Counted from the stretch's first letter, positions 1,060 to 56,125 are shown. The stretch: DNA of 64,000 bases from Acidimicrobiia bacterium (GCA_009841075.1 VXMP01000075.1:5907-69906); one strand, 5' to 3'. The notes: generated by a model not told the origin, from the letters alone. A program made the numbers and translations.

Positions 1060-2355
1060 TTACTTGTGCTTGAACCACACCAAGCCCTCACCCCTGGAGA
1101 TCACTGCAACGTCAATCGGACCTCCAATAGATTCGGCACCGGGCGTGAACTTCTCTTTGAAAGAAGCCAGGCTGACCAAGGTTTCAGCCATCTCGCCCAA
1201 ATGCTCCTTCGGTAACCCGGCGACAAGTTCTACCAGAGGCAAGGAATACTGCCTGATCATTGCTTCCATTTCATCATGGGCATTACGAAGGACTACTTCA
1301 GATAGCCCCTGAAGGTCTTTCATCAAAGGCGTAGAGATTGAGTCCGGTGTTCTGTTTTTAATTCGTTCGGAGATAATTTTTGCCTGAGCTTTTAACATTT
1401 TTTCGATTTGCTTATAATGAACTTCTAGAATCTTAGGATGAATCCCATCAATAAGGGTCTTGGAAATTTCGTGTTGTTGAGCGAAGGGAAGAATGGCAGA
1501 AGACTTGGCGTCATTAATTTCGATCATCTCTAACTGACGGGTTTTGACAACATCATCCATCATCTGATCGATAATCCAATGGGCTAGAGAGGGAAATATC
1601 TGATCCTTCCCGAAACCCGTAACAACCATCCCGGTTGAACCGGTCGACCAGTGAGCGGTTCGAAGATTTTGGATAGTCATCCTCCCTATATCCTGTCGGA
1701 TCGCCCTATTCAAAATACCTTCGCCCTGCATAAGCAGTTCGGGCCTCTGGCTAAACCATATATCTAAAAGATCATCCCAGTCATCAATTTTTTTATCAAA
1801 GAGCTCCCAATTTTGTAAAGCCAGGTCTAATTGCCGAAATGCCTTACCTTCATCAAGTCCCGAAACCGGGCCGATCTCAGCAAGATATTCTATCCTAGAC
1901 CGCACTACCTCTTGTAGTTGATGTAAGAAATAGTTTAGTTTTTCACTCCTGGTTCCAGGATGACTTCGTATATAAGTCCCTAGACTAGATCGAGCAAGGT
2001 AACTTAATTGCTCTAACTCATGGAGTATCTCGTTACGCACAAAATTAGTTTGAATCTCAGAAGAAATGTGGCGAGTCATCTGCGATAAAAAGTCAATAAA
2101 ATGCGAGCCGTGCTCTTCGACCGTTGAAAACTGAATTGATTGATTCAGACGTTTGTATTCCTGAACAATCGTCTCCCATGGGATGGGGCCTAGTGAAGAG
2201 GCACCATAGAACATAACTACTATGGGCGGATCAATCGATAACGGTAAGATTTTATTCGCCGTGTTATAGACCTTGGCGTCGCTCGTTAAAGTCACTGCGC
2301 TATCCGCGGCTACCGCCACCCCGTATCTATTCAGAATGGCTATCTCCGCTGTCAT
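1060..2355 (-). CDS. Hypothetical protein from a lower-GC island. The N-terminus resembles proteasome-beta/HslV Ntn hydrolases (MTAEIAILNRYGVAVAADSAVT...NKILPL...MFYGASSLG); the ~300-aa C-terminal region is unknown.
   Basis: The ORF is 1060..2505, but the likely start is the ATG at 2355, preceded by AAGGGA. The body is AT-richer than the flanking DNA. Thr2, Asp17 and Lys34 sit at proteasome catalytic positions. Confidence 0.6.
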   Translation of the reverse strand: MTAEIAILNRYGVAVAADSAVTLTSDAKVYNTANKILPLSIDPPIVVMFYGASSLGPIPWETIVQEYKRLNQSIQFSTVEEHGSHFIDFLSQMTRHISSEIQTNFVRNEILHELEQLSYLARSSLGTYIRSHPGTRSEKLNYFLHQLQEVVRSRIEYLAEIGPVSGLDEGKAFRQLDLALQNWELFDKKIDDWDDLLDIWFSQRPELLMQGEGILNRAIRQDIGRMTIQNLRTAHWSTGSTGMVVTGFGKDQIFPSLAHWIIDQMMDDVVKTRQLEMIEINDAKSSAILPFAQQHEISKTLIDGIHPKILEVHYKQIEKMLKAQAKIISERIKNRTPDSISTPLMKDLQGLSEVVLRNAHDEMEAMIRQYSLPLVELVAGLPKEHLGEMAETLVSLASFKEKFTPGAESIGGPIDVAVISRGEGLVWFKHK

Positions 2356-2496
2356 GATGGGTCCCTTAAAAGGCGGGTTGAGGTTGGGTATAGAAGAGGA
2401 TGTCACATCATAGCTGAAGCGCTGGGCAGGAGGCCTTAACTTTCTGGCCGATTTACAGCCGTGAGGAGCGTCCCCCAGTCCCTCTCTCCGATTGAT

Positions 2497-2537
2497 TATG
2501 TGCAAAAACGGGAACAGATTACGTGCAAAACCAGGAA
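2497..2537 (+). promoter_or_regulatory. Direct repeat TNNGTGCAAAAMC-GGAA x2 in the divergent intergenic region; candidate operator
   Basis: tatGTGCAAAAACGGGAAca and tacGTGCAAAACCAGGAAtg are spaced about 21 nt apart, immediately upstream of the ATPase start at 2566. Confidence 0.35.
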
Positions 2538-2565: not shown

Positions 2566-3795
2566 ATGGAAGGTTATGTCCCCCGCCTGGTAGACCGGCT
2601 TCTTGAGGAATACATCAAAGAAATCCCCGCCGTCATGGTGGTGGGTCCGCGCGCCTGTGGGAAAACCACCACCGCTCTCCGTCTTGTTCGTAGCGTGGTC
2701 CGGCTTGACTCGGATCAAGCCGCCTCGTTCCGGGCCGGGCCGGATGCGGCGCTACACGGGCGGGAAGAACCCGTACTGCTTGACGAGTGGCAGATGGTGC
2801 CGGAGGTGCTCGGTGCGGTCAAACGAGCCATAGACACCGACCGCCGACCCGGACGCTACCTTATCACCGGATCAGCCCGAACCGACCCGACCGACCGGCT
2901 CTGGCCACTAACCGGTCGGGCGGTAATGCTGCGTATGCACCCTCTGACGGTGGCCGAACAAGAGCATAGGCCCGTGCGCCCGCTGATCGACCGCATAGCG
3001 GAAGGCGAGGAGCCGGTAAAGGTCGAGGGGCCGCCAGTCGACCTGCGCGTCTATCTTCAGATCGCCTTAAAAGGTGGTTTCCCTGAGCCCGCCCTGAAGC
3101 TGAGCGAGTGGGCTGCCAGAGCTTGGCTCGAAAGCTACGCCGACCAGATCGCCCTAAGAGATTCCCGAACTCTCGGCAGCGAACCCGATGCCTACCGGCT
3201 GAAGCGCTACTTGGAGGCTTACGCCATCAACTCAGGACGGATAGTCCAACACAAGACGATCTACGACGCGGCCGGCATCAGCCGAAAGACCGCCTTGGCA
3301 TACGATGCCCTACTAAGCGACCTGATGGTCTTGAACGAGCTGCCGGCTTGGGCGACCAACCGACTCAAGCGGCTCAGCCGGGCTCCCAGGCGCTACCTGG
3401 TCGATTCTGGCCTGCTCGGGGGGATATTACGGGTCGGCATCGACGATGTAATGGCTAACGGCAACCTCCTCGGGACCATGATCGAGACGTTTGTGATAGC
3501 CCAGCTCCAGGCTCAAGCGGCTGTTTCGAGCACCCGCTATCGGCTTTCGCATCTACGGGAGCGCGACGGACGAAGGGAGGTGGACGTGATCGCAGAGTTG
3601 TCAGGAGGAAGGGTGATCGCCATAGAGATAAAGGCCGGGTCAAAGATCAGATCCTCCGATGCCCGACACCTATCGTGGTTGGGCGAGACCATGCAGGAAC
3701 GCTTCGTGGGCGGTGTAGTGCTGCATACCGGTCCCGACACCTACCGACTGGGTGATCGCATATTCGCCACTCCCATATCCACCCTGTGGGCTTAG
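2566..3795 (+). CDS. AAA+ ATPase, DUF4143 family (AAA_14 + DUF4143), paralog 1
   Basis: Walker A GPRACGKTT and Walker B LLDEWQ are present. The architecture is shared with the ORFs at 7238..8383 and 52788..54080. Confidence 0.85.
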   Translation: MEGYVPRLVDRLLEEYIKEIPAVMVVGPRACGKTTTALRLVRSVVRLDSDQAASFRAGPDAALHGREEPVLLDEWQMVPEVLGAVKRAIDTDRRPGRYLITGSARTDPTDRLWPLTGRAVMLRMHPLTVAEQEHRPVRPLIDRIAEGEEPVKVEGPPVDLRVYLQIALKGGFPEPALKLSEWAARAWLESYADQIALRDSRTLGSEPDAYRLKRYLEAYAINSGRIVQHKTIYDAAGISRKTALAYDALLSDLMVLNELPAWATNRLKRLSRAPRRYLVDSGLLGGILRVGIDDVMANGNLLGTMIETFVIAQLQAQAAVSSTRYRLSHLRERDGRREVDVIAELSGGRVIAIEIKAGSKIRSSDARHLSWLGETMQERFVGGVVLHTGPDTYRLGDRIFATPISTLWA

Positions 3796-7237: not shown

Positions 7238-8383
7238 TCAAGGCCAGAGGCTGTCCTCCGCCAAAGCCTGATGGAAAGTTGCGAGCGGCCACACCTCAAT
7301 ACCCTCTCCCGTGCGAAAAGCGTGGGGGCCGGCGTAGACCAGGATTCGGCGGACCAACCCAGGCAGGTCGGCTATGGCCCGAAGCCCTTTGACCATCGAG
7401 GTGTGGTAACGGCGGGCGGATTTGACCTCGATGGCCAGGTGCTCACCGCCTCGGCTTAGAACGAAATCAACCTCGGTCTGAGACTGGGAGGGTGTCCAGT
7501 AGGCGATTTCCTCATACAAATTAAGATGATCGGAGTGGGCTCGAAGCGCGCCGAACACCCAACCCTCCAGGAGAGGCCCTCTTTCTTCGGCAACAACCGC
7601 TCCTGACCGCCGCTTGAGCGCCCGCACCAACCCCGGATCCACCCAATAAAGCTTCGGTCGGCGACGCTCTCGGATACGTAGTCTGGTGTCCAAGGCGGGT
7701 AGCCGGGTGGCGACCAGGGTGTCTTCCAGGATTTCCAGGTAACCGTTGACGGTGGACCGGGCTATACCGACGTCACGGGCTATACCGGCTGCGTTCAGGA
7801 CTTGAGTGTGCATCAAGGCGGCGATGGGCAGAAAACGGACGAATCCGGCCAGGTTACGAACTGCCGCCTCGGCCCTGATCTCTTCCCTTAGATAGAGCTG
7901 CGTGTAGCTCTCCAGCGTTTCGCGGCGGCTCTCAGAGTCCCAGATCAGAGCGATAGTTCCGTAACGGAGTACCTGATCAAGGTCGAAATCGTCGCCGAGT
8001 TCGTTGGCAGTCAGCGGATACATCAACCGGCGAACCGCTCGGCCGGCCAACAGGTTGGTTCCGGCCGTCTTCAGCCGGCGGGCACTTGATCCCAGCAGGG
8101 CAAATCTGGTACCCCGTTCCTCGATATGGCGATGTACCTCGTTGAGTAGTCCAGGGATCCGCTGTATCTCGTCCACAACTATCCAGCGGTCCGGCGGTTG
8201 CCCGGATACGATCCTCCCGAACAGGGCCGGATCGGCCAGTAAATCGGTATATAGGGTCTCGTCGAGAAGATCAAGACGAAGCGCACCAGGCAACGCGGTA
8301 CGCGCCCAGGTGCTCTTGCCCACCCCTCTTATGCCCAGCAAGAAAAAGCTTTTCTGTGGGATCTGCGCCAGCCTTGGGTACAT
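7238..8383 (-). CDS. AAA+ ATPase, DUF4143 family, paralog 2
   Basis: Walker A GIRGVGKST and Walker B VVDEIQ are present. It is divergent from the Fic gene. Confidence 0.85.
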   Translation of the reverse strand: MYPRLAQIPQKSFFLLGIRGVGKSTWARTALPGALRLDLLDETLYTDLLADPALFGRIVSGQPPDRWIVVDEIQRIPGLLNEVHRHIEERGTRFALLGSSARRLKTAGTNLLAGRAVRRLMYPLTANELGDDFDLDQVLRYGTIALIWDSESRRETLESYTQLYLREEIRAEAAVRNLAGFVRFLPIAALMHTQVLNAAGIARDVGIARSTVNGYLEILEDTLVATRLPALDTRLRIRERRRPKLYWVDPGLVRALKRRSGAVVAEERGPLLEGWVFGALRAHSDHLNLYEEIAYWTPSQSQTEVDFVLSRGGEHLAIEVKSARRYHTSMVKGLRAIADLPGLVRRILVYAGPHAFRTGEGIEVWPLATFHQALAEDSLWP

Positions 8384-22771: not shown

Positions 22772-25266
22772 TTACCTACCTGAGGCCCGATAGAGAGCGA
22801 TCAGGCCTTCATTGTTGGCGAGGGTATTGATCTGGTCTCGGATGTTGTGGTCTTTCAGGTCTAGACGAAGCAGTCGTCCATCTATCCGGTCCAGAATCTC
22901 GATTCTCCCGAAGCGGTGTCCGTGTTCTTGGGCGTATAGGGCGAGCCCTTTGGCCTTTGCTACCGAGTCGGCTAGATGGGTTCCGTGGGGATCCAGGATG
23001 TCGACAACTATGCGGTCATCGTCTTGTCGGAAGAAAAGGAAATCGGGATAGACCGGCTGGTGTTCCCCATTTCTTCGTTGGTAGGGGAGGGTGAACGACC
23101 AGCTCTTGCGGGCGGGGTTGCGGAGCCAACCAAGACAGCCGGGGATTTCTGCTTTTAGTACAGCCTCTTCCAGGTTATTGAAGTGGTCGGAGAAGGTCCA
23201 GCCCTCGTCAACGTAAACGTGTCTTCCCCAGCCTGAGGCTTCGGCGGAACATTTCCACACCACCCGCTCCGGGTACCTGATTGTTATCAGAGCCGGCTGA
23301 TCGGACGAGCCGGTTATTTCGTGGTATACGGAGCGGCGACTCTCCGGCAGGCCGTCGATTTGTTCCCAATACTCGCTTAGCCATTGCCCAACCCGATCCC
23401 GAGCCAGGTTCTCTACTCCTTCTATGACCTCTGGGGCAAAGAGCAGCACGGCCACTTCAATCTTGGCGTGAGCGATCTGCTCCACATCGTCAATGCCCTC
23501 CACCGCACGTTGCCAGAATTCGTGATGGAGACCTTCTGCGATCTTGCGGCCCGCCTCGACGAATAGGTCGTTGATATTTTCGGACGAGGCCTCCACCTCC
23601 TGCACGGTGGTGTTGACAAACCTCTGTTCTATCAGGTCAAAGACAAGGGTGCCGAAGGTGACCAGTGACTTTTCGCGTACCTTATCCTGGAAGGTCTGAT
23701 CTTGGCGCTTTTCTTCCAGCTTCGACTGAAGGAATGCGCAGATCTCAGATTTGGCAGATGAGACGGCGTACTGATCAATACCGTCGACGCCCAGCGCTCG
23801 GGCCAGGCTCATCAGGCGGCGAACCTGTTTAGCCTTTCTGTGGGTAGGAACCGTGTAGGAGGGTAACTTGGAGAGCGCCTCGAAGATAGCCGCCTTATCG
23901 TCTGCACGATGTAACGTCACCGCCTCGCCGGATTGTTCGACCTCGACCGGAGGTACGTACTCGTGGTCGGAGTCGGTTAGGCGCTCAACCACCGATTGCA
24001 CACCTTGGGCGTCGTAATGGGGAAGGAACAGCGACACCCCGTTGAGGCTTTCGTCCTGGTTGATCCGCCTGGCGAGCGGGGTTCGAACCATCCTGCCGAT
24101 CAGCTGGGCTATGTAGGTGGCGTCCTTGGCCCGGCGGTAGGACATCATCGTCTCGGCCCGGGGGCAGTCCCAGCCGGTGGATAGGGCCGTCTTGAAGAAC
24201 ACCACCCTGACCTCGCGGTCGGCGGCGATCCGGGAGGGGGCGAGGTATTGGATCACGCGGCCATCCAAATCAAGGTGGCTGGCCTCGTCGAAGGAATGGC
24301 GGAACGCCTGGTTCGGCAAGGCGGCGGAAAGTTCCTCGTTGATCGCCTGGATCGCCTGGTTCAGGTCGGTGCGCGTTCCAGGCTTACCCTTCGGCGCGTT
24401 TTCCACTTGGACAATGAAGAGAGGCACCACCGGTCGCTCGCCCTGCTCGGCGCAGTATGTCGCCCAGCGCTCGGTGTAGTCCTTCCAGTGGCGGGTCGCC
24501 GCCCGCAACAGCGTGATGTCGATCTGCTGGTCGTCGGCGCTGTGGTGGAGCACGATCCGCTCCTTCAGCAGGCCGGACTCACGAACCTCGGCCGGCTCGA
24601 CGTGTACCGGATGAACGGTGCGGGATCCGGCTACCAGATCGTTGAACCGTTTAGGGGTGGCCGAAATGCCCAGCACCAGCGGCGAGGCTCGCATCTCGTC
24701 GGTGCCCTTAAGGAACCTTTGGATAATCGTTTCCGCGTTTTTCTCGTCACCTTTGGTTCGCATACCGCGATGGGCCTCGTCGATGATCACCACAAAGCGA
24801 GCACCCATCCGTTCGATGGTGTTGTCTAACGTCTGCCAGATCGTCCACCATTTTTTGTCCCCCAATGTGGTGAGCAGCTTGTCCCGGCCCAGCTTCTGCG
24901 TGTTCAGAAAGTAGAGTCGGCCCGGGCTCAGCACCTCTTGATTGAAGGACGACTCTATGACCTCCATATCCATCGGGGTCAGAACATCGGAGGTGTTGAG
25001 CATCTTGTTGTAGGTCTGGAGGTTCAGTTCGGGCAGGTCGGTGATCCAAAGAAATATGGCTTGGTCATCCGGGCCTTGCTGATGGTCGCCCTGGAGAATC
25101 CGCTCTAGGAGACGGGTGGCGATGACCGTCTTGCCTGCGCCGGTCGGTGCCGAAAGAACCACCGCCTGGGGAGAGTTTGGGCCTGCGATCGAGGCGGCTT
25201 GACGGACCCTGGTGGTCAGGTCTTCCACCGCCGCCTGCTGGAAATCCTTGAGGACCAGCCGCATCA
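22772..25266 (-). CDS. res: Type III restriction enzyme Res subunit (SF2 helicase + C-terminal nuclease-like region)
   Basis: The start is taken at MRLVLKDFQQ (about 25266), not at the far-upstream ATG of the ORF. Motif I is APTGAGKT and motif II (DEAH) is VVIIDEAHRG. Confidence 0.8.
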
Positions 25267-27425
25267 GCCCAGCACCCCCGACCGTTGACGGTGAAGTTGC
25301 GCGAGTAATCCCAGTAGAGCCTCCGGACCTGCAAGTGCTCGGGTAGGGCCTGGCACATCTCAATGAAACCGGCCTCCGAGTTGGTGACCAGCCACACATG
25401 GGTAACAGACGGGCGTGACTCAAGTTCCTTGGTGAACTGGGCCAGATGCTGCTCGTCAAACAGAACTCCGTAGGTGGAGCCATCCGGCAGGGACCAGGGT
25501 GCGTCACCGTCCCACTCCTCGAACTCTCCAACCGATCCGGACGCCATCCACAGAATCGGGACCACCGCGTTGAAATGTCGGCCCAGCTCCACCAGGTCAG
25601 GATCCAGATAGTCGAGACGGAGGAACTCGACATTCTCTTCGAATCCGTCTTCGTAGTTGTGGTCGGAGAGGTATCGGTCGGGGTACTTACCGGAGGGACT
25701 TGTGCCATCCGACCGAATTCCCTTTATCGCGGTCTCGCACCTCGGCTTGGTAACGGCCTCAAAGATGCCCTTCGCCTCGAACTCGGCATCTCCCTTGAAC
25801 ACCCCCCTTTGAGTCCCGGCCAGCGATTTAGCATCCCTGTCGTTTACCTCGTTGTTAGTGACCAAAACACATTGACGCCGACCGCCGTCCTGGGCGTTCA
25901 GTAGTGCGGTAGCGTGGAGGGTGGTGCCGGAACCCGCGAAGAAGTCAAGAATTACCGCGTCGGGTTTGGAGACCACCAGTGCATCCAGCGTATCGCGTAC
26001 CGCGTAAAGGGATTTCGGAAAATCGAATTGACGTCCCCCCAAAAGTTCTCCTAAGAGTTTGGTACCGCCTGTACCGGCGTCATGGCGGGATCGATGCCAC
26101 ATGGTCTTTATACGACGGTCCCGAGCACCCACATATCTAACAGAGAGCACACCCGTGTCTTCATTTCGACTCACCACTTCCAGCAAACCGGCTTCGAGCT
26201 GGTCCTGTAATTTGGCAGAGAGATAAGAAATCGCCCAGGTGCGCCGTTCGGGGTCGAACTTCCCTAACCGGGCCAGGCCACGGTGGGCAAGATCAAGTAA
26301 CTTCTCGCGCCCTAGGCCCCAATTACCCAAGGATTTATCCTTACGGATAGGCCAAGCCACCGGAAATCCTCCAATGGTTAGGTCAACCTCTGGAGTGAGG
26401 AAGTTGTACTCCGAAGGGTCAAGTAGTCCTTGTTCACCCCTTTCCTTGAGGCTCTCCCCCACATCTACGATTCGGCCCTTCTTCGGGTCGATGGCAATCG
26501 GATACACCATATTCGGACGGTCGGAAGGAAGAGCATTAGTTCCACCTCGAAGTAAGGACTTCCATCCAGGTGCTTGCTTTTCGCCTGCAGTATCACCGCC
26601 GAACGTAAACAAATCATCTGGCCTTGACTCAACCCCTGCCTCGCCGAAAAAGACAAAGTGGGCATATTCCTCAACACGCGAAAAGCGCGGCTGGGTCACG
26701 CCTTTCGGGTTGTTCATAATCGTCACCATCTGGTGGTAGGCATCCGGGAACATCTCATCAAGCAGAACGCCCAAATGGTGCACTTCATGCTCGTCGATCG
26801 TTACCACCAGCACCCCGTCCGGCTTCAATAGGTGCCTGGCTAAGCGGAGGCGTTTTTCCATAAACGACAGCCACTTGGAATGGCGGTAGCGATCATTTTC
26901 GTCTACGAAGCGGTTGTTGTACTTCCACGACTTGTCGCCGGTGTTGTACGGAGGGTCGATATAGATGCAATCCACCTTCCCGGCATAGGCGTATGTCAGC
27001 ACCTGCAGGGCATGAAAGTTCTCGCCGTTGATGACCACATGGGCGGGCTTTTCCGGACCTCCCCTCCTCACGTTCCCCACCGGGGTCAGGCCGCAGAAGA
27101 CCTGTTCGTGGAACTGCTTCACCACCAAAAGGTCCTTGACGGGAATCTTGGCTTCCGGCCCGTCGGTTCCCCTCGGGATGACCGTGGCCACACCGTCCTC
27201 GACCTTCAAGACCCGAAATTGGGACAGGTCATCGGGAGTAGTGCGGTTCTGGACGATTTGCCCCGACCGAACCGGATAACCGAACACCGAAACCGTCTCC
27301 GGAATGTGCTCCTCGAAGACCAACCCGAACTGCTTGGTCTTCTTCAGTTCCTTAACCTCTGAGGCGACCTGCTCCCGTAGCGACGGGTCTTCAATCTGGT
27401 CAATCAGGTCTTCTATCTTCGCCAT
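25065..27425 (-). CDS. mod: Type III R-M Mod subunit, N6-adenine DNA methyltransferase
   Basis: DPPY motif IYIDPPYNTG, SAM-binding motif FFAGSGTTLHA, and an NPPY-class layout. The C-terminal ~66 codons look like GC-rich read-through overlapping the res start. Confidence 0.85.
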   Translation of the reverse strand: MAKIEDLIDQIEDPSLREQVASEVKELKKTKQFGLVFEEHIPETVSVFGYPVRSGQIVQNRTTPDDLSQFRVLKVEDGVATVIPRGTDGPEAKIPVKDLLVVKQFHEQVFCGLTPVGNVRRGGPEKPAHVVINGENFHALQVLTYAYAGKVDCIYIDPPYNTGDKSWKYNNRFVDENDRYRHSKWLSFMEKRLRLARHLLKPDGVLVVTIDEHEVHHLGVLLDEMFPDAYHQMVTIMNNPKGVTQPRFSRVEEYAHFVFFGEAGVESRPDDLFTFGGDTAGEKQAPGWKSLLRGGTNALPSDRPNMVYPIAIDPKKGRIVDVGESLKERGEQGLLDPSEYNFLTPEVDLTIGGFPVAWPIRKDKSLGNWGLGREKLLDLAHRGLARLGKFDPERRTWAISYLSAKLQDQLEAGLLEVVSRNEDTGVLSVRYVGARDRRIKTMWHRSRHDAGTGGTKLLGELLGGRQFDFPKSLYAVRDTLDALVVSKPDAVILDFFAGSGTTLHATALLNAQDGGRRQCVLVTNNEVNDRDAKSLAGTQRGVFKGDAEFEAKGIFEAVTKPRCETAIKGIRSDGTSPSGKYPDRYLSDHNYEDGFEENVEFLRLDYLDPDLVELGRHFNAVVPILWMASGSVGEFEEWDGDAPWSLPDGSTYGVLFDEQHLAQFTKELESRPSVTHVWLVTNSEAGFIEMCQALPEHLQVRRLYWDYSRNFTVNGRGCWADAAGPQGFPAGGGGRPDHQGPSSRLDRRPKLSPGGGSFGTDRRRQDGHRHPSPRADSPGRPSARPG

Positions 27426-44771: not shown

Positions 44772-45218
44772 ATGAAACTGAACACCGACTATCTCACGCG
44801 TTCCATCAATGCCTTGGAGTCCGCCTACAACCATCTGAGCAGGCAAACTCCGGACGAGGAAGTGGCCGATTTGTCGGGCATAGTCCTGTATGACATATTC
44901 CGAGCAGCCTGCGTGAAGGAATTTGAGATCATCCTTGAACAGTGCGGGAGCATTTTGAGAAAGCGGCTGCGGCCTTATATGGCCTCCAACCGCCAGGCAG
45001 ATCGGCTGACCTTTAATAACACTTTCAGGCGATCCGCCAAGCACGGGCTTATCACGGTGGAGGCCTGTGAACGATGGCTCGGATATCGAGAAATCCGCAA
45101 CGATACGGCCCATCACTATGGTGCCAATTATGCGGAAGCCGCCCTGGGGGTTCTGTCCGGGTTTATAGAAGACGCCAAACACATTGTGGAAGTCCTGGCG
45201 ACGCCCTTCGATGAGTGA
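44772..45218 (+). CDS. HEPN-domain protein (HepT-like toxin of a HEPN/MNT pair; NTase substrate-binding family)
   Basis: The start is chosen at MKLNTDYL. The RNDTAHHY R-x4-HxY HEPN motif is present. The track ORF begins at an upstream TTG (44592). Confidence 0.75.
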   Translation: MKLNTDYLTRSINALESAYNHLSRQTPDEEVADLSGIVLYDIFRAACVKEFEIILEQCGSILRKRLRPYMASNRQADRLTFNNTFRRSAKHGLITVEACERWLGYREIRNDTAHHYGANYAEAALGVLSGFIEDAKHIVEVLATPFDE

Positions 45219-45537
45219 AGCATTGGACCTTCCCACCCGCTACCGGGAGCAGATAGAAGCCCTTTTACGCAGGCACGTCCCGGAAGTGGAAGTCTGGGCC
45301 TATGGAAGTCGGGTCAATGGACTTGGCCACGACGCCAGCGACTTGGACCTGGTTTTGAGGGGCCCTGGCCTAAAACCTATTGCTTTAGGCGAAATAGCCG
45401 ATCTGGCCAAAGGTTTTGAACAATCCACTATCCCGATCCTGATTGAAGCCCGAGACTGGGCCAGACTCCCCAAAAGTTTTCAGCAAGAAATCGAACAGAA
45501 CTATGTGGTGCTTCGAAAGGCCGGAGCGATTGGATAA
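45211..45537 (+). CDS. Minimal nucleotidyltransferase (MntA-like antitoxin)
   Basis: GSRVNGLGHDASDLDL matches the GS-x9-DxD NTase motif. The start overlaps the HEPN stop (ATGA-type coupling). Confidence 0.8.
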   Translation: MSEALDLPTRYREQIEALLRRHVPEVEVWAYGSRVNGLGHDASDLDLVLRGPGLKPIALGEIADLAKGFEQSTIPILIEARDWARLPKSFQQEIEQNYVVLRKAGAIG

Positions 45538-48691: not shown

Positions 48692-50182
48692 ATGGGTGCC
48701 ATCATGATCCAGGGGACTGCTTCAAGTGCAGGTAAGTCGTTGTTGGTGGCCGGGCTATGCCGTCTGGGGGTGCGGCGGGGTCTGTCCGTCTCTCCTTTCA
48801 AGCCCCAGAACATGTCCAACAACGCCGCCGCCTGTCCGGATGGTGGAGAGATCGGTCGGGCGCAAGCTCTACAGGCTCGGGCAGCCGGGGTAATACCCCA
48901 TCCTGACCTCAATCCGATCCTGATCAAACCGCAGTCTGATCGCACCGCTCAGCTGGTGGTAAACGGCACCCCCTACGGGCTGCTCCGTCCCGGGGATTAC
49001 CTCACCGACCGGGGCGGCTTGCTGGACCTGGTGATTACCAGCTTCGACAAGCTGAAGGCGAATCACGATCTGGTGGTGGTGGAGGGTGCGGGAAGTCCGG
49101 CGGAGACCAACCTGCGCTCCCGAGACATCGCCAATATGGGCTTCGCCAGGAGAGCGGGTGTCCCGGTTTTTCTGGTCGGCGACATTGACCGTGGTGGGGT
49201 AATCGCCTCCCTGGTGGGCACCCATACGGTCCTGGAGAAGGCGGACGTGGCTCTGATCAAAGGTTTCATCATCAACAAGTTCCGAGGCGATCCCTCCATT
49301 TTCGATTCGGCCGTCAGCCTGATCGAAGAGCGCACCGGTTGGCCGTGCCGGGGAATAGTCCCGTGGATTGCTCAGGCCGGCCATCTTCCATCCGAAGATG
49401 CGGTGAGCTTCCCCGAAGCCGTAGAGTCGAGTTCCTCAGAGCCCGACTCCGTCCCCCGACTTCGGATAGCCGTGCCCCTTCTCAGCCGGATTTCCAATCA
49501 TGACGATCTCGATCCTCTCATGGCAGAAGATGGGGTGGAGTGCGTGATGGTTCGCCCGGGTCGGCCGATTCCCCGAAGGGTTGACCTGATCCTCCTACTG
49601 GGCACCAAGTCCACCATCGGCGACTTGGATTTCTGTCGCGAGCAGGGATGGGATCACGACATCATCGCCCATGCCCGATCCGGCGGACACGTATTCGGGA
49701 TATGCGGGGGAATGCAGATGCTGGGCTGTTCTGTGGAGGATCCGGCCGGAGTAGACGGCCCGGTCCGACAGGTTCCCGGCTTGGGACTACTTAACATCCG
49801 GACAGTGATGGGTGAGACCAAAATAGTCCGTGAATCCTCCGGTATATGCACGGTTTCCGGAGAGGAGGTGCATGGTTATGAGATACACAACGGGCGGAGC
49901 TCGGGACCCGATCTGGTTCGGCCTCTCCTGCATCTGGCTTCCGGACCCGATGGCGGACAAAGCCCGGATGGGCGAATCGGCGGGGTGCAGGTCCACGGCC
50001 TCTTCGCCAACGACCGTTATCGGCGGGCCTGGTTGACCCGTCTTGGTGCCCAATCCGACCAGTACCTGGAATACGAGACCCGGGTGGAGGCGGCCCTGGA
50101 TGAGTTGGCATCCGCTCTGGAAGAGGCGATAGACGTGGAAGCCCTTTTCCAGGAAGCCCTTGAACCAACCGTTCGCCCATGA
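48692..50182 (+). CDS. cobQ: Cobyric acid synthase
   Basis: MIQGTASSAGKS P-loop and a C-terminal glutamine amidotransferase with GICGGMQMLG. Confidence 0.9.
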   Translation: MGAIMIQGTASSAGKSLLVAGLCRLGVRRGLSVSPFKPQNMSNNAAACPDGGEIGRAQALQARAAGVIPHPDLNPILIKPQSDRTAQLVVNGTPYGLLRPGDYLTDRGGLLDLVITSFDKLKANHDLVVVEGAGSPAETNLRSRDIANMGFARRAGVPVFLVGDIDRGGVIASLVGTHTVLEKADVALIKGFIINKFRGDPSIFDSAVSLIEERTGWPCRGIVPWIAQAGHLPSEDAVSFPEAVESSSSEPDSVPRLRIAVPLLSRISNHDDLDPLMAEDGVECVMVRPGRPIPRRVDLILLLGTKSTIGDLDFCREQGWDHDIIAHARSGGHVFGICGGMQMLGCSVEDPAGVDGPVRQVPGLGLLNIRTVMGETKIVRESSGICTVSGEEVHGYEIHNGRSSGPDLVRPLLHLASGPDGGQSPDGRIGGVQVHGLFANDRYRRAWLTRLGAQSDQYLEYETRVEAALDELASALEEAIDVEALFQEALEPTVRP

Positions 50183-50751
50183 GGGAGGCAGGTCGGCCTT
50201 CGGAGCTGATCCTCATACTGGGTGGGGCTCGTTCCGGCAAGAGCGCCGCCGCCGAGCAGTTAGCCCCATCCGGTAGTCGGGTGTTGTTTGTAGCTACCGC
50301 CGAACCGCTGGATGAGGCGATGCGGCAGCGCATTCAGGCCCACCGCAGGCACCGACCGGATCATTGGGACACGGCGGAGATCCCCATGCTGCATCAAGGT
50401 GACGAACTCCGCTCTTCGGCCGCCCGATACGACACCTTCATAGTGGACTGTCTGACCCTTTGGATCAGCAACCTGATGCTCTCCCTCGGCCCGGGTTCTG
50501 ACGCAGATGTGGAGGCCGAAACCGCCACCTCCCGCCTTCTCGACCTGATGGCTGAGGAGGGTGGTAGATGGATCCTGGTCAGCAACGAGGTGGGGCAAGG
50601 CATCGTGCCGAACAACCCGCTGGGAAGGGAATACCGGGATGTTCTCGGACGGGTCAACCAGCAGGTGGCGTCACGAGCCGACCAGGTGCTGCTGATGGTG
50701 GCCGGTTTGCCGATCGACCTGAAGTCCGTCACCACACCGTTAAACCGGTGA
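50179..50751 (+). CDS. cobU: Bifunctional adenosylcobinamide kinase / adenosylcobinamide-phosphate guanylyltransferase
   Basis: ILGGARSGKS P-loop. The start overlaps the cobQ stop (ATGA). Confidence 0.88.
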   Translation: MREAGRPSELILILGGARSGKSAAAEQLAPSGSRVLFVATAEPLDEAMRQRIQAHRRHRPDHWDTAEIPMLHQGDELRSSAARYDTFIVDCLTLWISNLMLSLGPGSDADVEAETATSRLLDLMAEEGGRWILVSNEVGQGIVPNNPLGREYRDVLGRVNQQVASRADQVLLMVAGLPIDLKSVTTPLNR

Positions 50752-50825
50752 TATCCCAACAGGAATCCCACATAGTCAATAGGGCGGAAAGGTCATATAA
50801 CGCCTGGACAGAACAGGCAAAATCC

Positions 50826-52562
50826 CTAAGCCACCTGGTATTCGAGCAGGGACGACTTACCTAGCATTTCGATAAAACGTACCCTCAGGCTGACGCCGTT
50901 TACATCGGTCAGCATCAGGACTTGGCCCAGCTTGAAATTAACCGGCTGAGACTTGCCTTCGTCAACGGCAACGTTGGCTGTGTATAGGTAGGTTCTTTCC
51001 AGGGTGTCGAGAATCGGGTTTAGCCTCCCGGCCAGGCCGGGAAGGTGGCCAGTTCCTTCCGTGAATATCGCAGACCCGCCGCCCGGCAGCTCGGTTAGCT
51101 CTATAGCCAGTTCCTGGGGTGGCTGCCAAGCCTTCTCTACATACCCGACCAAACCAGGGGCACCGCATAACACTGTTATGGGAAGTTCGGAGTGAAAACG
51201 AAAGTGGGCACGTCCGAAAGTGTCGGTTTCTTCTGCCATCCAGGTTCCGTTCGGATAATGAGCCACCACCTTTACGCCGCTTTTTGGCCGGCCCTGGACG
51301 CTTACTGTTACAACCCCCTTCAAGTCTTCGGTCGGTGGAGGAGCAGAGGGGATGGTCAGGCGGAGCTCAACACCATCTAATAGCTCGTAACGTGGTTCTT
51401 GTCCGGTGAGGGAAAGCGTGTCGCGGTAGATAATCCTGACCCCTTCGCCACGCTCCTGCAGGAAATAGCGGCGATTGCCCGAACCAGGAACCTCCCCGAT
51501 TTCCAGTAGGCGGAGTATGGAGGCCAGGGTTTCGTTACGAGTGGCCTGACGGTCGCGCATCGCGTCAATAGATAGCGTGTTGGGGAGGGTGCCGGGAGAA
51601 TATAACTCCAGCCGATCATCGAATATAAACATCCTCGTCTTGGCGTTCTCTATGGAATAGTCCCGATGCACCACCGCATTTACCACCGCCTCGAACAACG
51701 ACCGTTCACTGAACTGTGGTACCTCGACAAATCCCGGCGTTCTCCGCGCCGACACCCGTGTATTGAAACGGGCGAACTTCACAGCTTGCCGAATCTGTCG
51801 ATCCAGAGGCCCGGTGATGGTGGAGGCGTCGTGTTGTTCCGCGCTGTCGAGAGCCGTTCCCCTATAGCGAACCGCTTCGATTAATGCACCTCTCAGGTAA
51901 AGGTGCGGCTTTTCGGTGCAAAGCAGTACACCTGCCACCGTGGCCCGCGACACACCCTCGTCATCGATATCCAACAGACCTAGCTTCAAGAGTTGGTTCT
52001 GCACCGACTCCTCGGAACGGGAGCTAAGGAAACGGTCGATTAGTTCTGTATCCAAGGTGCGAAAGCCAGTCCGGTCTACCATTGTTTCATCAGGGCCTTT
52101 AAGTCCGGCTCGACCGCGGTGCTGGAACAGCCGGTACAGAGCGGAGGGCGATAGCTGCCTCTTGGAACTGCCTTGTCTTTGAAGGTATCCGCCCGGACTG
52201 CGGTGAACCAAATCGCTTCTAGGGATATCCACTACCAGCACCATTCCCTGCTCCAGGGCGAACTTATGGGTAAAAAAGTGAAGGGGTGGATCTATGCTAT
52301 CGGCGCAAACCTCACTTATGAAGGCCTCTGCCTTCCCTAGACCTTCCCGATCCAGTGAACCAACCTCCCCCTGGTCTGTCACACCGAGAAACAGAGTGCC
52401 TCCCATAGTGTTGCCTAAAGCGGCCAACTCGTCGGCCATAGTCTCTCTTCTGGGTGACACCAAGCGCCCGTCTTGAATCTTGACGTCCTTGAACTCGATC
52501 CGAGTGTCCTCGCCGAGCAACAAACGCTCTCGCACCAACTCCTTGGTCCAAATTACGGCCAT
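50826..52562 (-). CDS. AlbA_2 (Schlafen-like DNA-binding) + HATPase_c_4 (RecG-C-terminal-like) protein with an extra ~170-aa C-terminal domain of unknown function
   Basis: The N-terminus has EDTRIEFK. The mid region has AVVNAVVHRDYS. The C-terminal region has no recognisable motifs. Confidence 0.7.
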   Translation of the reverse strand: MAVIWTKELVRERLLLGEDTRIEFKDVKIQDGRLVSPRRETMADELAALGNTMGGTLFLGVTDQGEVGSLDREGLGKAEAFISEVCADSIDPPLHFFTHKFALEQGMVLVVDIPRSDLVHRSPGGYLQRQGSSKRQLSPSALYRLFQHRGRAGLKGPDETMVDRTGFRTLDTELIDRFLSSRSEESVQNQLLKLGLLDIDDEGVSRATVAGVLLCTEKPHLYLRGALIEAVRYRGTALDSAEQHDASTITGPLDRQIRQAVKFARFNTRVSARRTPGFVEVPQFSERSLFEAVVNAVVHRDYSIENAKTRMFIFDDRLELYSPGTLPNTLSIDAMRDRQATRNETLASILRLLEIGEVPGSGNRRYFLQERGEGVRIIYRDTLSLTGQEPRYELLDGVELRLTIPSAPPPTEDLKGVVTVSVQGRPKSGVKVVAHYPNGTWMAEETDTFGRAHFRFHSELPITVLCGAPGLVGYVEKAWQPPQELAIELTELPGGGSAIFTEGTGHLPGLAGRLNPILDTLERTYLYTANVAVDEGKSQPVNFKLGQVLMLTDVNGVSLRVRFIEMLGKSSLLEYQVA

Positions 52563-52787
52563 GACTTCAGCTTATACCTCGTTGAGTATTCGGTGTCTAA
52601 ATAGCCAAGAAAGACAATAATTGGGGCGTCCAATATGGCTACGCCCCCGGCACCTTCCGGCTGGTACGACCATGGCCTGTACTGGAGTACGGCGAGGTCT
52701 GCGCTTTAGAAACCGGCAAGACGACCGTGCCGAGATGAGAACGGCTTACATCATGGCAAGCCTACGTTCGGGTATATGTCCTCGTGT

Positions 52788-54080
52788 TCAGGGGCCTAAT
52801 AAGGCGGCGGGGACTACCGCAATGCCATCTTGGTTTCGGTAGGCGTGGTGGCCGGTGGTAATGATCATGGTGTCCACCAGCCCGGGGCCGAGTTGTCGGG
52901 CGAGCCAGCGCAGGTGGGCGGTATCCTGGCGGGTGGGCACGGCTGTCAGTTTCACTTCGATCCCCAGTACTTTCCCTTCATGCTCCACGATCAGATCAAC
53001 CTCTCGTAGGTCATTCCAGGTTCTTAGGTGGCCCACTCGGGCCTGATGAGCCTGGGCGTAGACCCGCACGCTCTGGGTCACCAACGACTCGAACATAGCG
53101 CCAAGCAGCGGGCCGATGTGGAAGGACGGGACGGGTCGCTCGGATGGGTTTGGTGACAACAATCCTTCAGCGGAAACGTTCAGTAAACGGGCGGCCAGCG
53201 CAGGATCAGCAAGGTGATGTTTGGGTCCACGCTTCAACCTTCTCAACGAGGTACCCCACGGCTGCCAGGCCGGAACCGGCTCGACCAGCCACATCGCCTC
53301 CAGTAGGTCGCGATAGACCGCGGTAGTGGTCTTGGCCGGTTTGCCGCCCTCCGCCGGAGTCGAGGCATCCAAAATTGCCTCATACGAAGCAGTTGTGGCG
53401 GTGGCGGCGGCGTATGCGGTCATCCAGCGTCGCATGGTGGAGGGGCGTCGCAACCTACGGCCCATCAAGCCCACTTCGTGATCAACTACCCGATCCAAAT
53501 AACCATCAAATCGGACCGACCGAAGTTTGCTATCCGTCGTTTTCATACCCGGGAAACCCCCTTCCAGGATCTCCTTGACGTAGTCGGACAACCCCACCTC
53601 CGTTTGCCCACTAATCCTGGAACGGCCCCCGGCCAGCAAACGTCCCAGGCTCACGGTCGGCGTTTCCAAGCCTCTTTCCGATAGAGATATGGGCCGCATC
53701 CTCAACGTCACAATTCGTCCGGCACCCGAGTGGGTTGGCAGAGTGGCCGGACCGGTTGATCCGGTGAGCAGAAACCGTCCCGGTGCCGGGTTCTCGTCCA
53801 CAGCGCGACGCACCAGGTCCCACGAGTAGGGATAACGCTGCCATTCGTCGATCAGAACCGGCGGCTCTCCGACCGTCAACCGGCCCGGATCGGCTTGAGT
53901 AAGTGCCATAGTCTGGGGATCGTCCAGGTTGTGGACGGTTCGTGCCCGCCGAAGGGCAGTGCGCGTCTTGCCCACCGCCCGGGGACCGTTGATGCAGATG
54001 GCCGGCAAACCACCCAACATCCAGTCCAACTCCTGGTCAACTACCCGAGATAGGTAGGCACCGCTTTCCGAAACAGGCAT
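52788..54080 (-). CDS. AAA+ ATPase, DUF4143 family, paralog 3
   Basis: Walker A GPRAVGKTR and Walker B LIDEWQ. Co-oriented with the 86-aa ORF upstream and the AlbA_2 gene downstream. Confidence 0.85.
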   Translation of the reverse strand: MPVSESGAYLSRVVDQELDWMLGGLPAICINGPRAVGKTRTALRRARTVHNLDDPQTMALTQADPGRLTVGEPPVLIDEWQRYPYSWDLVRRAVDENPAPGRFLLTGSTGPATLPTHSGAGRIVTLRMRPISLSERGLETPTVSLGRLLAGGRSRISGQTEVGLSDYVKEILEGGFPGMKTTDSKLRSVRFDGYLDRVVDHEVGLMGRRLRRPSTMRRWMTAYAAATATTASYEAILDASTPAEGGKPAKTTTAVYRDLLEAMWLVEPVPAWQPWGTSLRRLKRGPKHHLADPALAARLLNVSAEGLLSPNPSERPVPSFHIGPLLGAMFESLVTQSVRVYAQAHQARVGHLRTWNDLREVDLIVEHEGKVLGIEVKLTAVPTRQDTAHLRWLARQLGPGLVDTMIITTGHHAYRNQDGIAVVPAALLGP

Positions 54081-54140
54081 TGATCCCTTTCCCTTCGATT
54101 AGTGGGAGTGTGGGAATATGTCCTTCTATGCTACTAATTC

Positions 54141-54401
54141 TCAGGTTTCTGCGCTACAAATTCTCGGACGTTCGTAAATCCTCGTAAGTGACTGTCCGAA
54201 CCTGAACACAGCTTCCGGCAGATGTTCCAGGCGAAGCCCCCCGAACGGTGGTTCAGAAAGATAAATGGGGTAATGGTCTCCGTCGGGAAACCGGAAGTGG
54301 GTTCTCACCAGTAGGTGGCCGTCCGGGTGCTGGTCAACAGCCACGTCCCTACAGAGGTTTTCGCACAATTTTTCCCTAAGGGTATACAGGTCAGGTATCA
54401 T
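54141..54401 (-). CDS. Hypothetical 86-aa protein
   Basis: ORF 60 nt upstream of ATPase paralog 3, same strand. No motif recognised. Confidence 0.35.
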   Translation of the reverse strand: MIPDLYTLREKLCENLCRDVAVDQHPDGHLLVRTHFRFPDGDHYPIYLSEPPFGGLRLEHLPEAVFRFGQSLTRIYERPRICSAET

Positions 54402-54563
54402 CAGAGCATCCTCGATTGTTTACTAACGGCCTTGATTATGGCTAGCTTAATTTGATCCTCTTTGATACTTGCAGCGAAGTTCTTGGGTCTGTATAGGATG
54501 GTTCAAAGGAGTTGTCCTTGCCCATTGGCGATGGGCGGGGTGGCAGGTTAAGGCGGCGTTTAT

Positions 54564-54974
54564 ATGGTGATACAGCAGGCGAGGGACTTTATCGCGGCCA
54601 ACCATCGGGGTGTTTTGCTCACCTTTCGAGCGGATGGGGCACCTCAGATGTCTCCGATCCTGGCCAACGTCGACCAAGGGGGCTTCGTTGTGGTGTCGAG
54701 TCGGGAGACCGCCTACAAGGTCAAGAACCTGGAGCGGGATCCGAGGGCATCTCTTTGTATGTTCGTCGACCGCTTCTATGGACAGTGGTTCCAGGTGGAT
54801 GGGGTGGCTGAGGTTGTTCGGCTTCCCGAGGCCATGGAACCGCTGGTCGACTATTACCGGAGCGTCTCGGGCGAGCATCCCGATTGGGAGGAGTATCGGG
54901 AGGCGATGCGGCGGGAGAGGCGCGTACTTATCCGAATATCGGTTCAAAGGGCCGGGCCTACCCGACACGGTTAG
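54564..54974 (+). CDS. PPOX-class (pyridoxamine 5'-phosphate oxidase-like) F420-dependent enzyme family protein
   Basis: About 136 aa with a split-barrel pattern similar to actinobacterial Rv1155-type proteins (GVLLTF.ADG.PQ..P). Confidence 0.65.
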   Translation: MVIQQARDFIAANHRGVLLTFRADGAPQMSPILANVDQGGFVVVSSRETAYKVKNLERDPRASLCMFVDRFYGQWFQVDGVAEVVRLPEAMEPLVDYYRSVSGEHPDWEEYREAMRRERRVLIRISVQRAGPTRHG

Positions 54975-55019
54975 ATTCCCGGCCGGTCGGTGCGTCTTAC
55001 GAACCACAAGAAGGTTCTG

Positions 55020-55107
55020 CGGAGGGGGTGGGATTCGAACCCACGAGGGGGGATACCCCTACGGCATTTCGAATGCCGCGCACTAGACCAGCCTATGCGA
55101 CCCCTCC
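55020..55107 (-). tRNA. tRNA-Ser (anticodon CGA)
   Basis: Manual fold: acceptor GGAGGGG/CCCCTCC; anticodon stem CGGCA/TGCCG with loop TTCGAAA; a long variable arm; T-loop GGTTCGAATCC. Confidence 0.85.
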
Positions 55108-55158
55108 CACAGGGAACCGGATTCTACCCCGTCAACCGGGAATTGCGCCCGGGTTCCG

Positions 55159-55614
55159 TCAGCGGAGGTTGTTTTTGAAGAAGTCGACCAAAAGGATGCT
55201 GCACTCCTCTTCAAGCATTCCGGACACTATTTCGATGTGATGGTTCAGCCGAGGATCTTGGGGAAGATTGTAAAGGCTCCAGGCGGCACCGGTTTTGAGG
55301 TCGGCCGCCCCGTACACGAGGCGCTTGATGCGGGCCGCCACCGCTGCTCCTGCACACATCGGGCAGGGTTCCAATGTGACCACCAAGGTATGGCCTTCAA
55401 GCCGCCACCGACCGGTCTGGCGGGCGGCTTGCGACAGCACCAACATCTCGGCATGGGCTGTGGGGTCCTGGGCCTCTTCGCGGCGGTTGTGATCGGAAGC
55501 GAGCGTTCTTCCTTGGGGATCAACCAGTACCGCGCCAACCGGAACATCGCCATGTGCCGGGGCTTGGGAGGCTTCCGCCAAGGCCTCTTCCATTTTTTGT
55601 TTCCAGTTGGTCAT
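55159..55614 (-). CDS. tadA: tRNA-specific adenosine deaminase
   Basis: HAEMLV and PCPMCAGA zinc-binding motifs. The start is chosen at MTNWKQ; the ORF is extended to 55824. Confidence 0.88.
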   Translation of the reverse strand: MTNWKQKMEEALAEASQAPAHGDVPVGAVLVDPQGRTLASDHNRREEAQDPTAHAEMLVLSQAARQTGRWRLEGHTLVVTLEPCPMCAGAAVAARIKRLVYGAADLKTGAAWSLYNLPQDPRLNHHIEIVSGMLEEECSILLVDFFKNNLR

Positions 55615-56001
55615 GGGGCTGCGGTAGCTAGGGGACTGCCGTGCGGCCCGTCGTCGAGTGCGGATTTTGGGGCCTGGAACGGCCGGTGGCTCGGGCCCGG
55701 TGACCTTACGGCAACCGATTCCTTCGTTTAGGGCTGCTTCCTCCCGGACCTGACCCGGTTGGCGAGGGTTAGGTAGCGTATGGGCCTGACCTTCATCGCT
55801 CGTACCGATCCGGTTTCCCGCCATCTCGGCATCCTTCGACGGGCGTCCGCCCCGCCTGTAGAGGGTTTCGGGTTACAGGACACCCCTAGCGTCCCGCGTT
55901 GCACGACTTCTCAAGTCTACCCGCCCTTTTCGCTCCCCGCCCGGCCCGCTTTTGCCCGGCGGCACGCGTAGAGGTCGGACTTCCTTTAATATTCAAGGGC
56001 T

Positions 56002-56091
56002 GGAGGGGTCGCATAGTCCGGTCTAGTGCGCACGCTTGGAAAGCGTGTAGGCGTGTTAAGCGTCTCGTGGGTTCGAATCCCACTCCCTCCG
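56002..56091 (+). tRNA. tRNA-Ser (anticodon GGA)
   Basis: Manual fold: acceptor GGAGGGG/TCCCTCC; anticodon stem CACGC/GCGTG with loop TTGGAAA; a long variable arm; T-loop GGTTCGAATCC. Confidence 0.85.
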
Positions 56092-56125
56092 CTCTTCATT
56101 CCGGTGACACCCATCGTGGCGACCA

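Follow-up and report, generated by a model that had tools for sequence, protein, structure and literature searches.

A Schlafen-GHKL protein with a shared C-terminal beta module in a variable islet of an Acidimicrobiia bacterium: a probable single-chain immune nuclease beside a stand-alone ATPase and a gene remnant

The window is a 64,000 nt stretch of the genome of an Acidimicrobiia bacterium (GCA_009841075.1 VXMP01000075.1:5907-69906), in which an islet at positions 50826-54401 carries three genes on the minus strand. According to open reading frame (ORF) calls and Pfam matches these encode a small protein of 86 amino acids (ORF86, 54141..54401), a 430-aa ATPase which is the third DUF4143/AAA_14 paralogue of the window (52788..54080), and a 578-aa protein that combines a Schlafen domain with a GHKL ATPase domain (50826..52562). 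A sequence-only reading of this DNA had described three co-oriented genes with gaps of 60 nt between ORF86 and the ATPase gene and of 225 nt between the ATPase and Schlafen genes, and the ORF calls confirm both coordinates and gaps. The islet also lies where it had been placed, between the cob genes and a divergent gene of the PPOX type: a CobU gene (50179..50751, plus strand) is found beyond the Schlafen gene and a PNPOx_N gene (54564..54974, plus strand, Pfam) beyond ORF86. Directly past the latter, a tRNA-Ser(cga) gene detected with ARAGORN (55019..55107, minus strand), which that reading did not mention, borders the variable islet. The three genes are best understood not as one system but as evolutionarily independent items that share a short variable islet bounded by cobU and tRNA-Ser. 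The 578-aa protein is probably a single-chain prokaryotic Schlafen immune nuclease, with the ATPase being an unrelated stand-alone protein and ORF86 a pseudogene fragment.

The Schlafen/AlbA_2 nuclease domain of the 578-aa protein (residues 18-137; 52152..52511, minus strand) is recognised by Pfam as SLFN_AlbA_2 (PF04326) with E=7.6e-14, which is above the gathering score, and Foldseek matches it to the N-terminal nuclease domains of mammalian SLFN13, SLFN14, SLFN11 and SLFN12. Its translation contains E18-x4-E23-x-K25 (E18-DTRI-E23-F-K25; 52488..52511, minus strand); in an alignment of 24 homologues E18 and K25 never vary and the conservation of E23 is 90% or higher. This sequence conforms to Ex4(E/D)xK, the catalytic motif of human and prokaryotic Schlafen RNases (PMC13056530). 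A GHKL (Bergerat-fold) ATPase domain follows in the same chain at approximately residues 286-405 (51348..51707, minus strand), as judged from conservation and from a match to HATPase_c_4 (PF13749) at residues 309-403 with E=1.4e-14. The GHKL segment is the most conserved part of the protein, with 83% mean pairwise identity, and the invariant residues of the same alignment include an N-box-like E291-x3-N295, D315...S322-P-G324 and G372-E-G374. By eye, E291/N295, D315...G324 and G372/G374 appear to fit the N-box and G-box patterns of GHKL proteins. The earlier description of a Schlafen-like protein with AlbA_2 and HATPase_c_4 domains, of a kind seen in defence contexts, is thereby borne out.

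By this domain content the 578-aa protein is a prokaryotic Schlafen of the 'Schlatpase' architecture class, which is already known from published work. The best match among solved structures is the AlbA_2-HATPase_c_4 protein DIP2311 of Corynebacterium diphtheriae (PDB 3LMM; Foldseek E=3e-12 over about 435 aligned columns), which has the same architecture over the N-terminal ~400 residues; it differs in that its deposited chains comprise 477-556 residues and in that the C-terminal module of the window protein matches no solved structure as a unit. A PADLOC model of prokaryotic Argonautes (pAgo; PDLC02394) matches residues 167-396, which is explained by the N-terminus of SLFN-pAgo proteins being the same SLFN plus GHKL 'Schlatpase' supradomain. 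Full-length relatives are numerous: more than 120 homologue clusters span 97-100% of the 578-aa length at 61-71% identity, and conservation is strong along the whole family alignment, the C-terminus included. The protein itself is identical in five assemblies, and a 100% match is annotated as originating from a metagenome-assembled genome (MAG) of Acidimicrobiia. The source annotations of homologues read 'transcriptional regulator' or 'putative DNA binding domain-containing protein'. In two loci, L059:9989-11738 (Acidimicrobiia) and L070, the Schlafen homologue is split into at least two ORFs (244 and 355 aa in L059), and the gene is undergoing pseudogenisation in these relatives.

Pfam leaves about 175 residues at the end of the protein unassigned, so the roughly 170 extra C-terminal residues of the sequence-only reading are real. 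They correspond to a module at residues 411-578 (168 aa; 50829..51332, minus strand), which consists of a transthyretin/CarboxypepD_reg-like immunoglobulin (Ig) sandwich (~411-490) followed by a second beta subdomain (~491-578). An AlphaFold2 run of the module on its own with 46 sequences yields a confident all-beta fold (pLDDT 96.3, pTM 0.90), by which a low-complexity or disordered extension is rejected. The statement that the extension lacks any recognisable motif is roughly true, with the reservation that its first half gives a weak CarboxypepD_reg match (E=0.043) and that some homologues carry PF13620 in precomputed annotation. The extension had also been called novel. It is indeed real and folded, and neither Pfam nor PADLOC has an entry for the whole unit, but it is common to all of the more than 120 full-length homologue clusters and characterises a large subfamily that already exists among the Schlafen/Schlatpase proteins published in 2026. 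Foldseek against the PDB aligns only the first ~80 residues of the module, to transthyretin-like, CarboxypepD_reg and CnaB-type Ig sandwiches (E about 1e-3), and finds no solved structure for the second subdomain or for the whole. A profile search of PDB sequences with the module returns nothing significant, BFVD gives only generic matches to tail-fibre Ig domains, and none of the phage records carries the module. NCBIfam has no match for any of the three islet proteins.

The module is not confined to the Schlafen family. When 1.84 billion representative proteins are searched exhaustively with HMMER, 496 are found to carry it, mostly at the C-terminus and sometimes in two to three tandem copies. 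In a Pfam census of 74 long module matches the N-terminal partners are HATPase_c_4 (16/74), TIR_2 (12/74), SLFN_AlbA_2 (8/74), TIR (6/74), DUF4143 (5/74), AAA_14, caspase (Peptidase_C14), PIN_8 and Pkinase (3/74 each), and CAP12/Pycsar TIR, SEFIR, ThsB_TIR, PIN_12 and Trypsin_2 (2/74 each). In such proteins the PADLOC models for ThsB, SpbK, PD-T4-6, caspase and PDC-S01 recognise the effector part at the N-terminus and never the module. A cultured example is a 734-aa TIR protein with the module which is encoded on a Sinorhizobium chiapasense plasmid within a cluster of TIR genes. Five of the 496 proteins (P0121, P0123, P0124, P0129 and P0133) have two to three tandem modules behind a kinase or trypsin-like protease domain, and two of these, P0124 and P0133, have no PADLOC match. 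It is proposed that this pattern of fusions is the one expected of a swappable sensor or regulatory module of single-chain immune proteins, and its presence on TIR, caspase, PIN, kinase and DUF4143 proteins alike suggests a common sensing logic.

The sequence-only reading had gone on to suggest that the three genes form an undescribed ATPase-dependent module. A scan of a genome collection with the alignment of the 578-aa family retrieved 80 loci from other species, most of them with 10-kb flanks. When all three window ATPases are used as tblastn queries, a DUF4143 gene is detected within 10 kb at six of the 80 loci and adjacent to the Schlafen homologue at none, the nearest being more than 1.5 kb away; ORF86-like sequence is present at two. 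From the side of the ATPase, homologues at 67-68% identity have as neighbours a transposase and a ribbon-helix-helix (RHH) gene, HicA and an integrase, a tandem DUF4143 copy beside a tRNA synthetase, or metabolic and housekeeping genes. The contig of a 75%-identical homologue stops just past the gene, so its downstream neighbours are outside the scope of this comparison. The order of ATPase gene then Schlafen gene is retained only in contigs of the same lineage, L121 and L122, in which the ATPase is 98% and 86% identical, respectively. The gene order is thus not kept in other species and the genes are independently distributed in relatives, and the three-gene module is rejected by the neighbours recorded around the Schlafen and the ATPase homologues alike, along with the degraded state of ORF86. 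Chance adjacency of an ATPase and a Schlafen gene is also unsurprising because three DUF4143 paralogues are found within 64 kb.

ORF86 has no Pfam match at E<=0.01 and aligns with only positions 1-17 of the 91 positions of the DUF1828 profile (E=0.18). An intact homologue of 260 aa (L023:16253-17035) matches DUF1828 with E=9.7e-16, and a tblastn comparison with it reveals that ORF86 lacks residues 61-108, a 48-aa internal deletion that includes the conserved SDRGHTLMHISY stretch, and stops after about residue 127, so that the C-terminal half is gone. Because of this deletion and truncation relative to the intact homologue, ORF86 is taken to be the decayed remnant of a DUF1828 gene of approximately 260 codons. 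The same alignment rules out ORF86 as a small regulator or antitoxin. Homologues of ORF86 are found near the restriction gene (Res) of type III restriction-modification systems, between Res and the methyltransferase gene (Mod) in locus L002 (Acidimicrobiia) and beside a Res fragment in L023. G+C content at third codon positions (GC3) is 0.563 in ORF86, the lowest value in the region, and 0.615 in the Schlafen gene, compared with 0.680 in the ATPase gene and 0.65-0.73 in the surrounding host genes. Since ORF86 homologues occur near type III Res and both genes have low GC3, it is suggested that ORF86 and the Schlafen gene arrived on a common cassette linked to restriction-modification which later decayed. 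Remnants of Res, Mod or other genes of the L002 cassette were not found in the islet.

The 430-aa ATPase consists of AAA_14 and DUF4143 regions (Pfam) and has a Walker A motif (GPRAVGKT), a Walker B motif (VLIDEW) and a nuclease-like D...ExK motif near its C-terminus; DUF4143 is listed within the PD-(D/E)XK superfamily (PMC3424549). It matches the PADLOC model PDLC04790 of the defence candidate PDC-S01 (DUF4143/AAA_14, COG1373) almost end to end (profile positions 10-417 of 422, E=7.5e-76), so that the proposed PADLOC check does return a defence-type match. Like PDC-S01, the window ATPase is a single gene of a family that is met in varied contexts, PDC-S01 is only listed as a 'phage defence candidate', and the tie of the window ATPase to a Schlafen gene is adjacency in this lineage alone. 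A report of anti-phage activity for DUF4143 proteins was not found in the literature. The two other paralogues of the window, which had been counted correctly, are intact and lie at 2566..3795 (plus strand) and 7238..8383 (minus strand); three copies within 64 kb represent an expansion of the family in this genome. The first of these adjoins an ORF of 481 aa (1060..2505, minus strand) which has no Pfam match. The islet ATPase is accordingly regarded as an independent stand-alone gene of a multi-copy family, and it would act by itself, if it acts at all.

A population variant of the islet from another sample (L118) bears on the relation between the two larger genes. All six single-nucleotide polymorphisms (SNPs) of this 6.3-kb contig fall inside the ATPase gene (53228-53515), and one of them introduces a nonsense change, G285*, at window position 53228 (L118 position 377), while the Schlafen protein is unchanged. 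This clustering suggests relaxed constraint on the ATPase or recombination with a paralogue. An ATPase-dependent defence module restricted to the lineage, in which the ATPase and the Schlafen protein, perhaps with ORF86, act together, is improbable. The co-orientation and the gaps of 225 and 60 nt, the lack of a convincing terminator between the genes and the retention of the order in L121 and the more distant L122 are in support of it, as is the fusion of the Schlafen protein's C-terminal module to DUF4143 ATPases elsewhere (P0149, P0182 and P0269), which makes the module a shared partner domain. It is contradicted by the complete lack of adjacency in the 80 independent loci, by the transposase, integrase, toxin-antitoxin, tandem DUF4143 or housekeeping neighbours of the ATPase homologues, by a population in which the ATPase is interrupted and the Schlafen protein is not, and by the differing composition of the two genes. 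The three paralogues in 64 kb make a chance encounter likely, and ORF86 is not only degraded but lacking in L122, the closest relative that keeps the ATPase-Schlafen pair. Because the module also sits on DUF4143 ATPases, the ATPase and the Schlatpase are suggested to be alternative effectors for one sensor and not cooperating partners. With no new ATPase-dependent three-gene system at this site, follow-up work on a chance adjacency is spared.

The neighbourhood of the Schlafen family is of a different kind. Clustering of all flanking ORFs of the 80 loci identifies two recurrent neighbours, a ~1,016-aa protein with ResIII and RE_endonuc domains and an N6_N4 methyltransferase, which are the Res and Mod proteins of type III restriction-modification. 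By tblastn, Res is present in 36/80 loci and Mod (N6_N4_Mtase) in 32/80, with one or both within 10 kb in 37 of them; in 32/80 loci Res lies no more than 400 bp from the Schlafen gene and always on the same strand. Two gene orders are observed, Res-Slfn-Mod and Slfn-Res...Mod. The type III-linked loci belong to several phyla and several chromosomal contexts, and in the other loci the gene stands alone in diverse surroundings. Taxa of the 80-locus scan include Latescibacterota, Terriglobia, Binatia, Entotheonella, Gammaproteobacteria, Rhodobacterales, Gemmatimonadetes and Acidimicrobiia. The linkage was not found in the published accounts of prokaryotic Schlafens and Schlatpases that were examined.

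The family is 60-71% identical across such distant phyla, Acidobacteriota and Rhodothermales among them (L001-L080), and this similarity looks like horizontal transfer throughout a habitat. Many of the loci may originate from sponge microbiomes, to judge from the names of MAGs, taxa and samples, for example APA_bin, RHO3_bin, Spongiisociaceae, Entotheonella, ENGE20 and ROBB21. Toxin-antitoxin pairs of HepT and MNT (a HEPN ribonuclease and a nucleotidyltransferase) are often inserted in the type III operons beside the Schlafen gene, and in L005, L011, L016-L019, L028, L032, L061, L062 and L076 they are located between the Schlafen gene and Mod. These type III operons appear to be accretion sites for defence genes.

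Neither Res nor Mod adjoins the window copy, and its only defence-type neighbour is the PDC-S01 candidate ATPase. A type III pair does exist in the window, composed of a 978-aa Res-like ORF with a ResIII helicase (22772..25708, minus strand) and a Mod-like ORF with an N6_N4_Mtase domain (25065..27425, minus strand), but it is about 23 kb away from the Schlafen gene and belongs to a different subfamily, with no tblastn match for Res and about 30% identity for Mod. The Schlafen copy of the window is therefore an orphan and has probably lost its type III partner. Two Acidimicrobiia chromosomes (L002 and L003) have the Schlafen gene at the same site and share the genes downstream of it; upstream, Res-DUF1828-Mod is present only in L002 and metabolic genes take its place in L003. 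The two loci can be read as a snapshot of the loss or replacement of the restriction-modification part with retention of the Schlafen gene.

This recurrent linkage raises the possibility that the 578-aa protein mainly serves type III restriction-modification as an accessory subunit or a regulator, for example one that binds DNA or modulates Res and Mod, which would be a functionless leftover in the window. The direct, same-strand position beside Res in 32/80 loci fits this role, and so do the source annotations as regulator or DNA-binding protein and the fusion of related Schlatpase modules to a type I specificity subunit (bioRxiv 10.64898/2026.05.29.728809); the missing Res and Mod neighbours of the window copy agree with a leftover. 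Against this role, the nuclease motif is strictly conserved even in the orphan copy, and in the 43/80 loci without restriction-modification genes in 10 kb the protein is still full-length and uniformly constrained. It also has an all-beta module in place of the C-terminal helix-turn-helix (HTH) typical of the 'regulator' class, and this same module is also attached to TIR, caspase and PIN effectors, which take no part in restriction-modification. A regulatory subunit is for these reasons considered unlikely.

As a single-chain immune nuclease, the 578-aa protein can be compared with the prokaryotic Schlafens pSlfn1-55 (Perez Taboada et al. 2026, Nat Microbiol, PMC13056530). Both share an N-terminal SLFN_AlbA_2 domain with Ex4(E/D)xK, its fusion to a histidine-kinase-like (GHKL) domain, which is the commonest pSlfn architecture, the occurrence of an extra C-terminal domain of Ig-like fold, and a family that is often located among defence genes. 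Bacterial Schlafens defend against phages through trigger-activated cleavage of tRNA and have swappable sensor domains, which in pSlfn5 is an Ig-like C-terminal domain (PMC13056530). The likeness of this sensor to the window module is one of fold class, and the window module has two subdomains. pSlfn5 moreover has no GHKL domain, whereas the 578-aa protein has one together with a linker of about 270 residues before the tail, and the Ig-like sensor of pSlfn5 is variable whereas the module of the window family is as conserved as the nuclease.

The second point of comparison is the Schlatpase of the SLFN-pAgo protein RzAgo, in which the two Pfam domains follow one another as they do in the window protein; the residues that appear to form GHKL motifs are conserved in the window family. 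The SLFN plus GHKL supradomain drives ATP-dependent tetramerisation, and the C-terminal tails of Schlatpases are mostly HTH, then tetratricopeptide repeat (TPR) and Ig-like domains (bioRxiv 10.64898/2026.05.29.728809). Unlike RzAgo, the window protein has no Argonaute core and carries the beta module at the sensor position; ATP-driven tetramerisation is known for RzAgo only and would have to be assumed for the 578-aa protein by analogy. Stand-alone Schlatpase genes also occur in restriction-modification operons of sponge-associated Poribacteria (bioRxiv 10.64898/2026.05.29.728809), with the difference that the published link is to type I and that of the window family to type III.

On the strength of these comparisons the N-terminal Schlafen domain is predicted by homology to be an RNase, most likely a tRNase. 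The GHKL domain may drive ATP-dependent oligomerisation, as in the SLFN-pAgo protein, and thereby assemble the active nuclease, and the C-terminal module with its two beta subdomains would bind a trigger or otherwise gate this assembly. Once activated, the protein would cleave tRNA and arrest translation in the infected cell. Within type III operons the Schlafen protein may serve as a second line behind restriction, a back-up in the manner of PrrC, or it may at least be co-mobilised. PrrC is an anticodon nuclease which is encoded within a type Ic restriction-modification locus and is unleashed by phage anti-restriction (cited in PMC13056530). The likeness to PrrC and RloC lies in an NTPase-coupled, probable tRNase inside a restriction-modification operon, for which a back-up role when restriction is neutralised is plausible, and it holds for 32-36 of the 80 homologue loci, all of type III; the window copy is outside any restriction-modification operon. 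PrrC and RloC differ in that an ABC-type ATPase with an anticodon nuclease (ACNase) and a GHKL domain with a Schlafen nuclease have unrelated folds, and PrrC in particular belongs to type Ic systems and not to type III. The parallel would thus be an analogy of position and probable chemistry and not homology. The recurrent co-directional linkage to type III genes across several phyla makes the hypothesis of a PrrC-style back-up testable.

Several observations weigh against an immune nuclease of this kind. The published defence assays are mixed, since two of seven tested Schlafen systems protected E. coli and both were without a histidine-kinase/GHKL domain; the protective pair were the fusions to DUF262 and to an Ig-like domain, and the Schlafens of the histidine-kinase type gave no protection against the phage panel (PMC13056530). 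Defence by a stand-alone Schlatpase would be an extrapolation from SLFN-pAgo. Neither Res nor Mod is found within 10 kb in 43/80 loci, so the linkage is frequent and not obligatory, and the full-length AlphaFold2 model is poor outside the C-terminus (pTM 0.36), with confidence below 50 in residues 325-381. The ATPase-Schlafen pair persists at 98% and 86% ATPase identity in L121 and L122, and a lineage-specific functional pairing may lie behind this. Finally, the C-terminal subdomains have mean pairwise identities of 0.72-0.74 compared with 0.72 for the Schlafen domain, so that the module is as conserved as the nuclease, unlike the variable sensor of pSlfn5; it may therefore recognise a ligand that is itself conserved, or help in assembly, instead of tracking a phage protein that evolves quickly.

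It could further be argued that the protein has no immune role, being a housekeeping or stress RNase-ATPase or a decaying gene, and that the islet is genomic debris. Of the prokaryotic Schlafen genes, 30.4% have no known defence gene nearby (PMC13056530), which together with the failure of the histidine-kinase type to protect would agree with this idea. The window neighbours are in decay, with ORF86 a remnant and the ATPase subject to a nonsense variant, and homologues are split or pseudogenised in L059 and L070. The window ORF, by comparison, is intact and full-length with all invariant residues present, and the protein is identical in the five assemblies. Identity of 60-71% across phyla, combined with a foreign-like composition, indicates that the gene has repeatedly been acquired horizontally and kept, as is usual for defence genes. 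A protein without any immune function is therefore very unlikely.

The single-chain immune nuclease remains the preferred reading, and the 578-aa protein represents a large and very well conserved Schlafen-GHKL subfamily, in a family that was characterised only in 2026, which could serve as a test case for the triggering of stand-alone 'Schlatpases'. A more ambitious picture, which is tentative and rather less probable than its negation, joins the module to the type III linkage. The module would be an undescribed and widely shuffled immune sensor of a conserved cue, used on at least eight classes of effector (Schlafen-GHKL, several TIR types, caspase, PIN, trypsin, kinase and DUF4143), with recognition of a conserved cue being considered because the module is not hypervariable. 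The Schlafen protein embedded in type III operons would then be a PrrC-like guard that halts translation when restriction fails, and its horizontal spread would have taken place between phyla that, from the names of MAGs and samples, appear to share the sponge-microbiome habitat.

The islet itself is variable at its tRNA-Ser side. Between tRNA-Ser(cga) and the ATPase gene the window and the related contig L122 are wholly different, with unrelated sequence in L122 taking the place of the ORF86 and PNPOx stretch, which probably marks this segment as a recombination-prone spot. An integrative island at tRNA-Ser is rejected, as no flanking att-like direct repeats are found in 50500-55300 and the called genes that flank the islet include no annotated integrase. 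Nucleotide similarity between the window and other loci ends at the boundary of the Schlafen coding sequence. A synteny test based on CobU in metagenome contigs is uninformative, the CobU relatives being at most 54% identical. A scan for promoters and terminators is likewise uninformative: it yields no promoter-like sites, although this organism may not follow the sigma-70 consensus, and terminator-like sites are rarer than expected from shuffled sequence. Beyond the islet, a tadA deaminase gene lies between two tRNA-Ser genes, cga on the minus strand and gga on the plus strand (55019-56092). On the other side, upstream of the cob genes, two adjoining small genes at ~44775-45537 (plus strand; L116:13026-13737) carry NTP_transf_2/MTPAP-like and NTase_sub_bind domains in precomputed Pfam annotation; they form a pair resembling nucleotidyltransferase/HEPN-type toxin-antitoxin systems.

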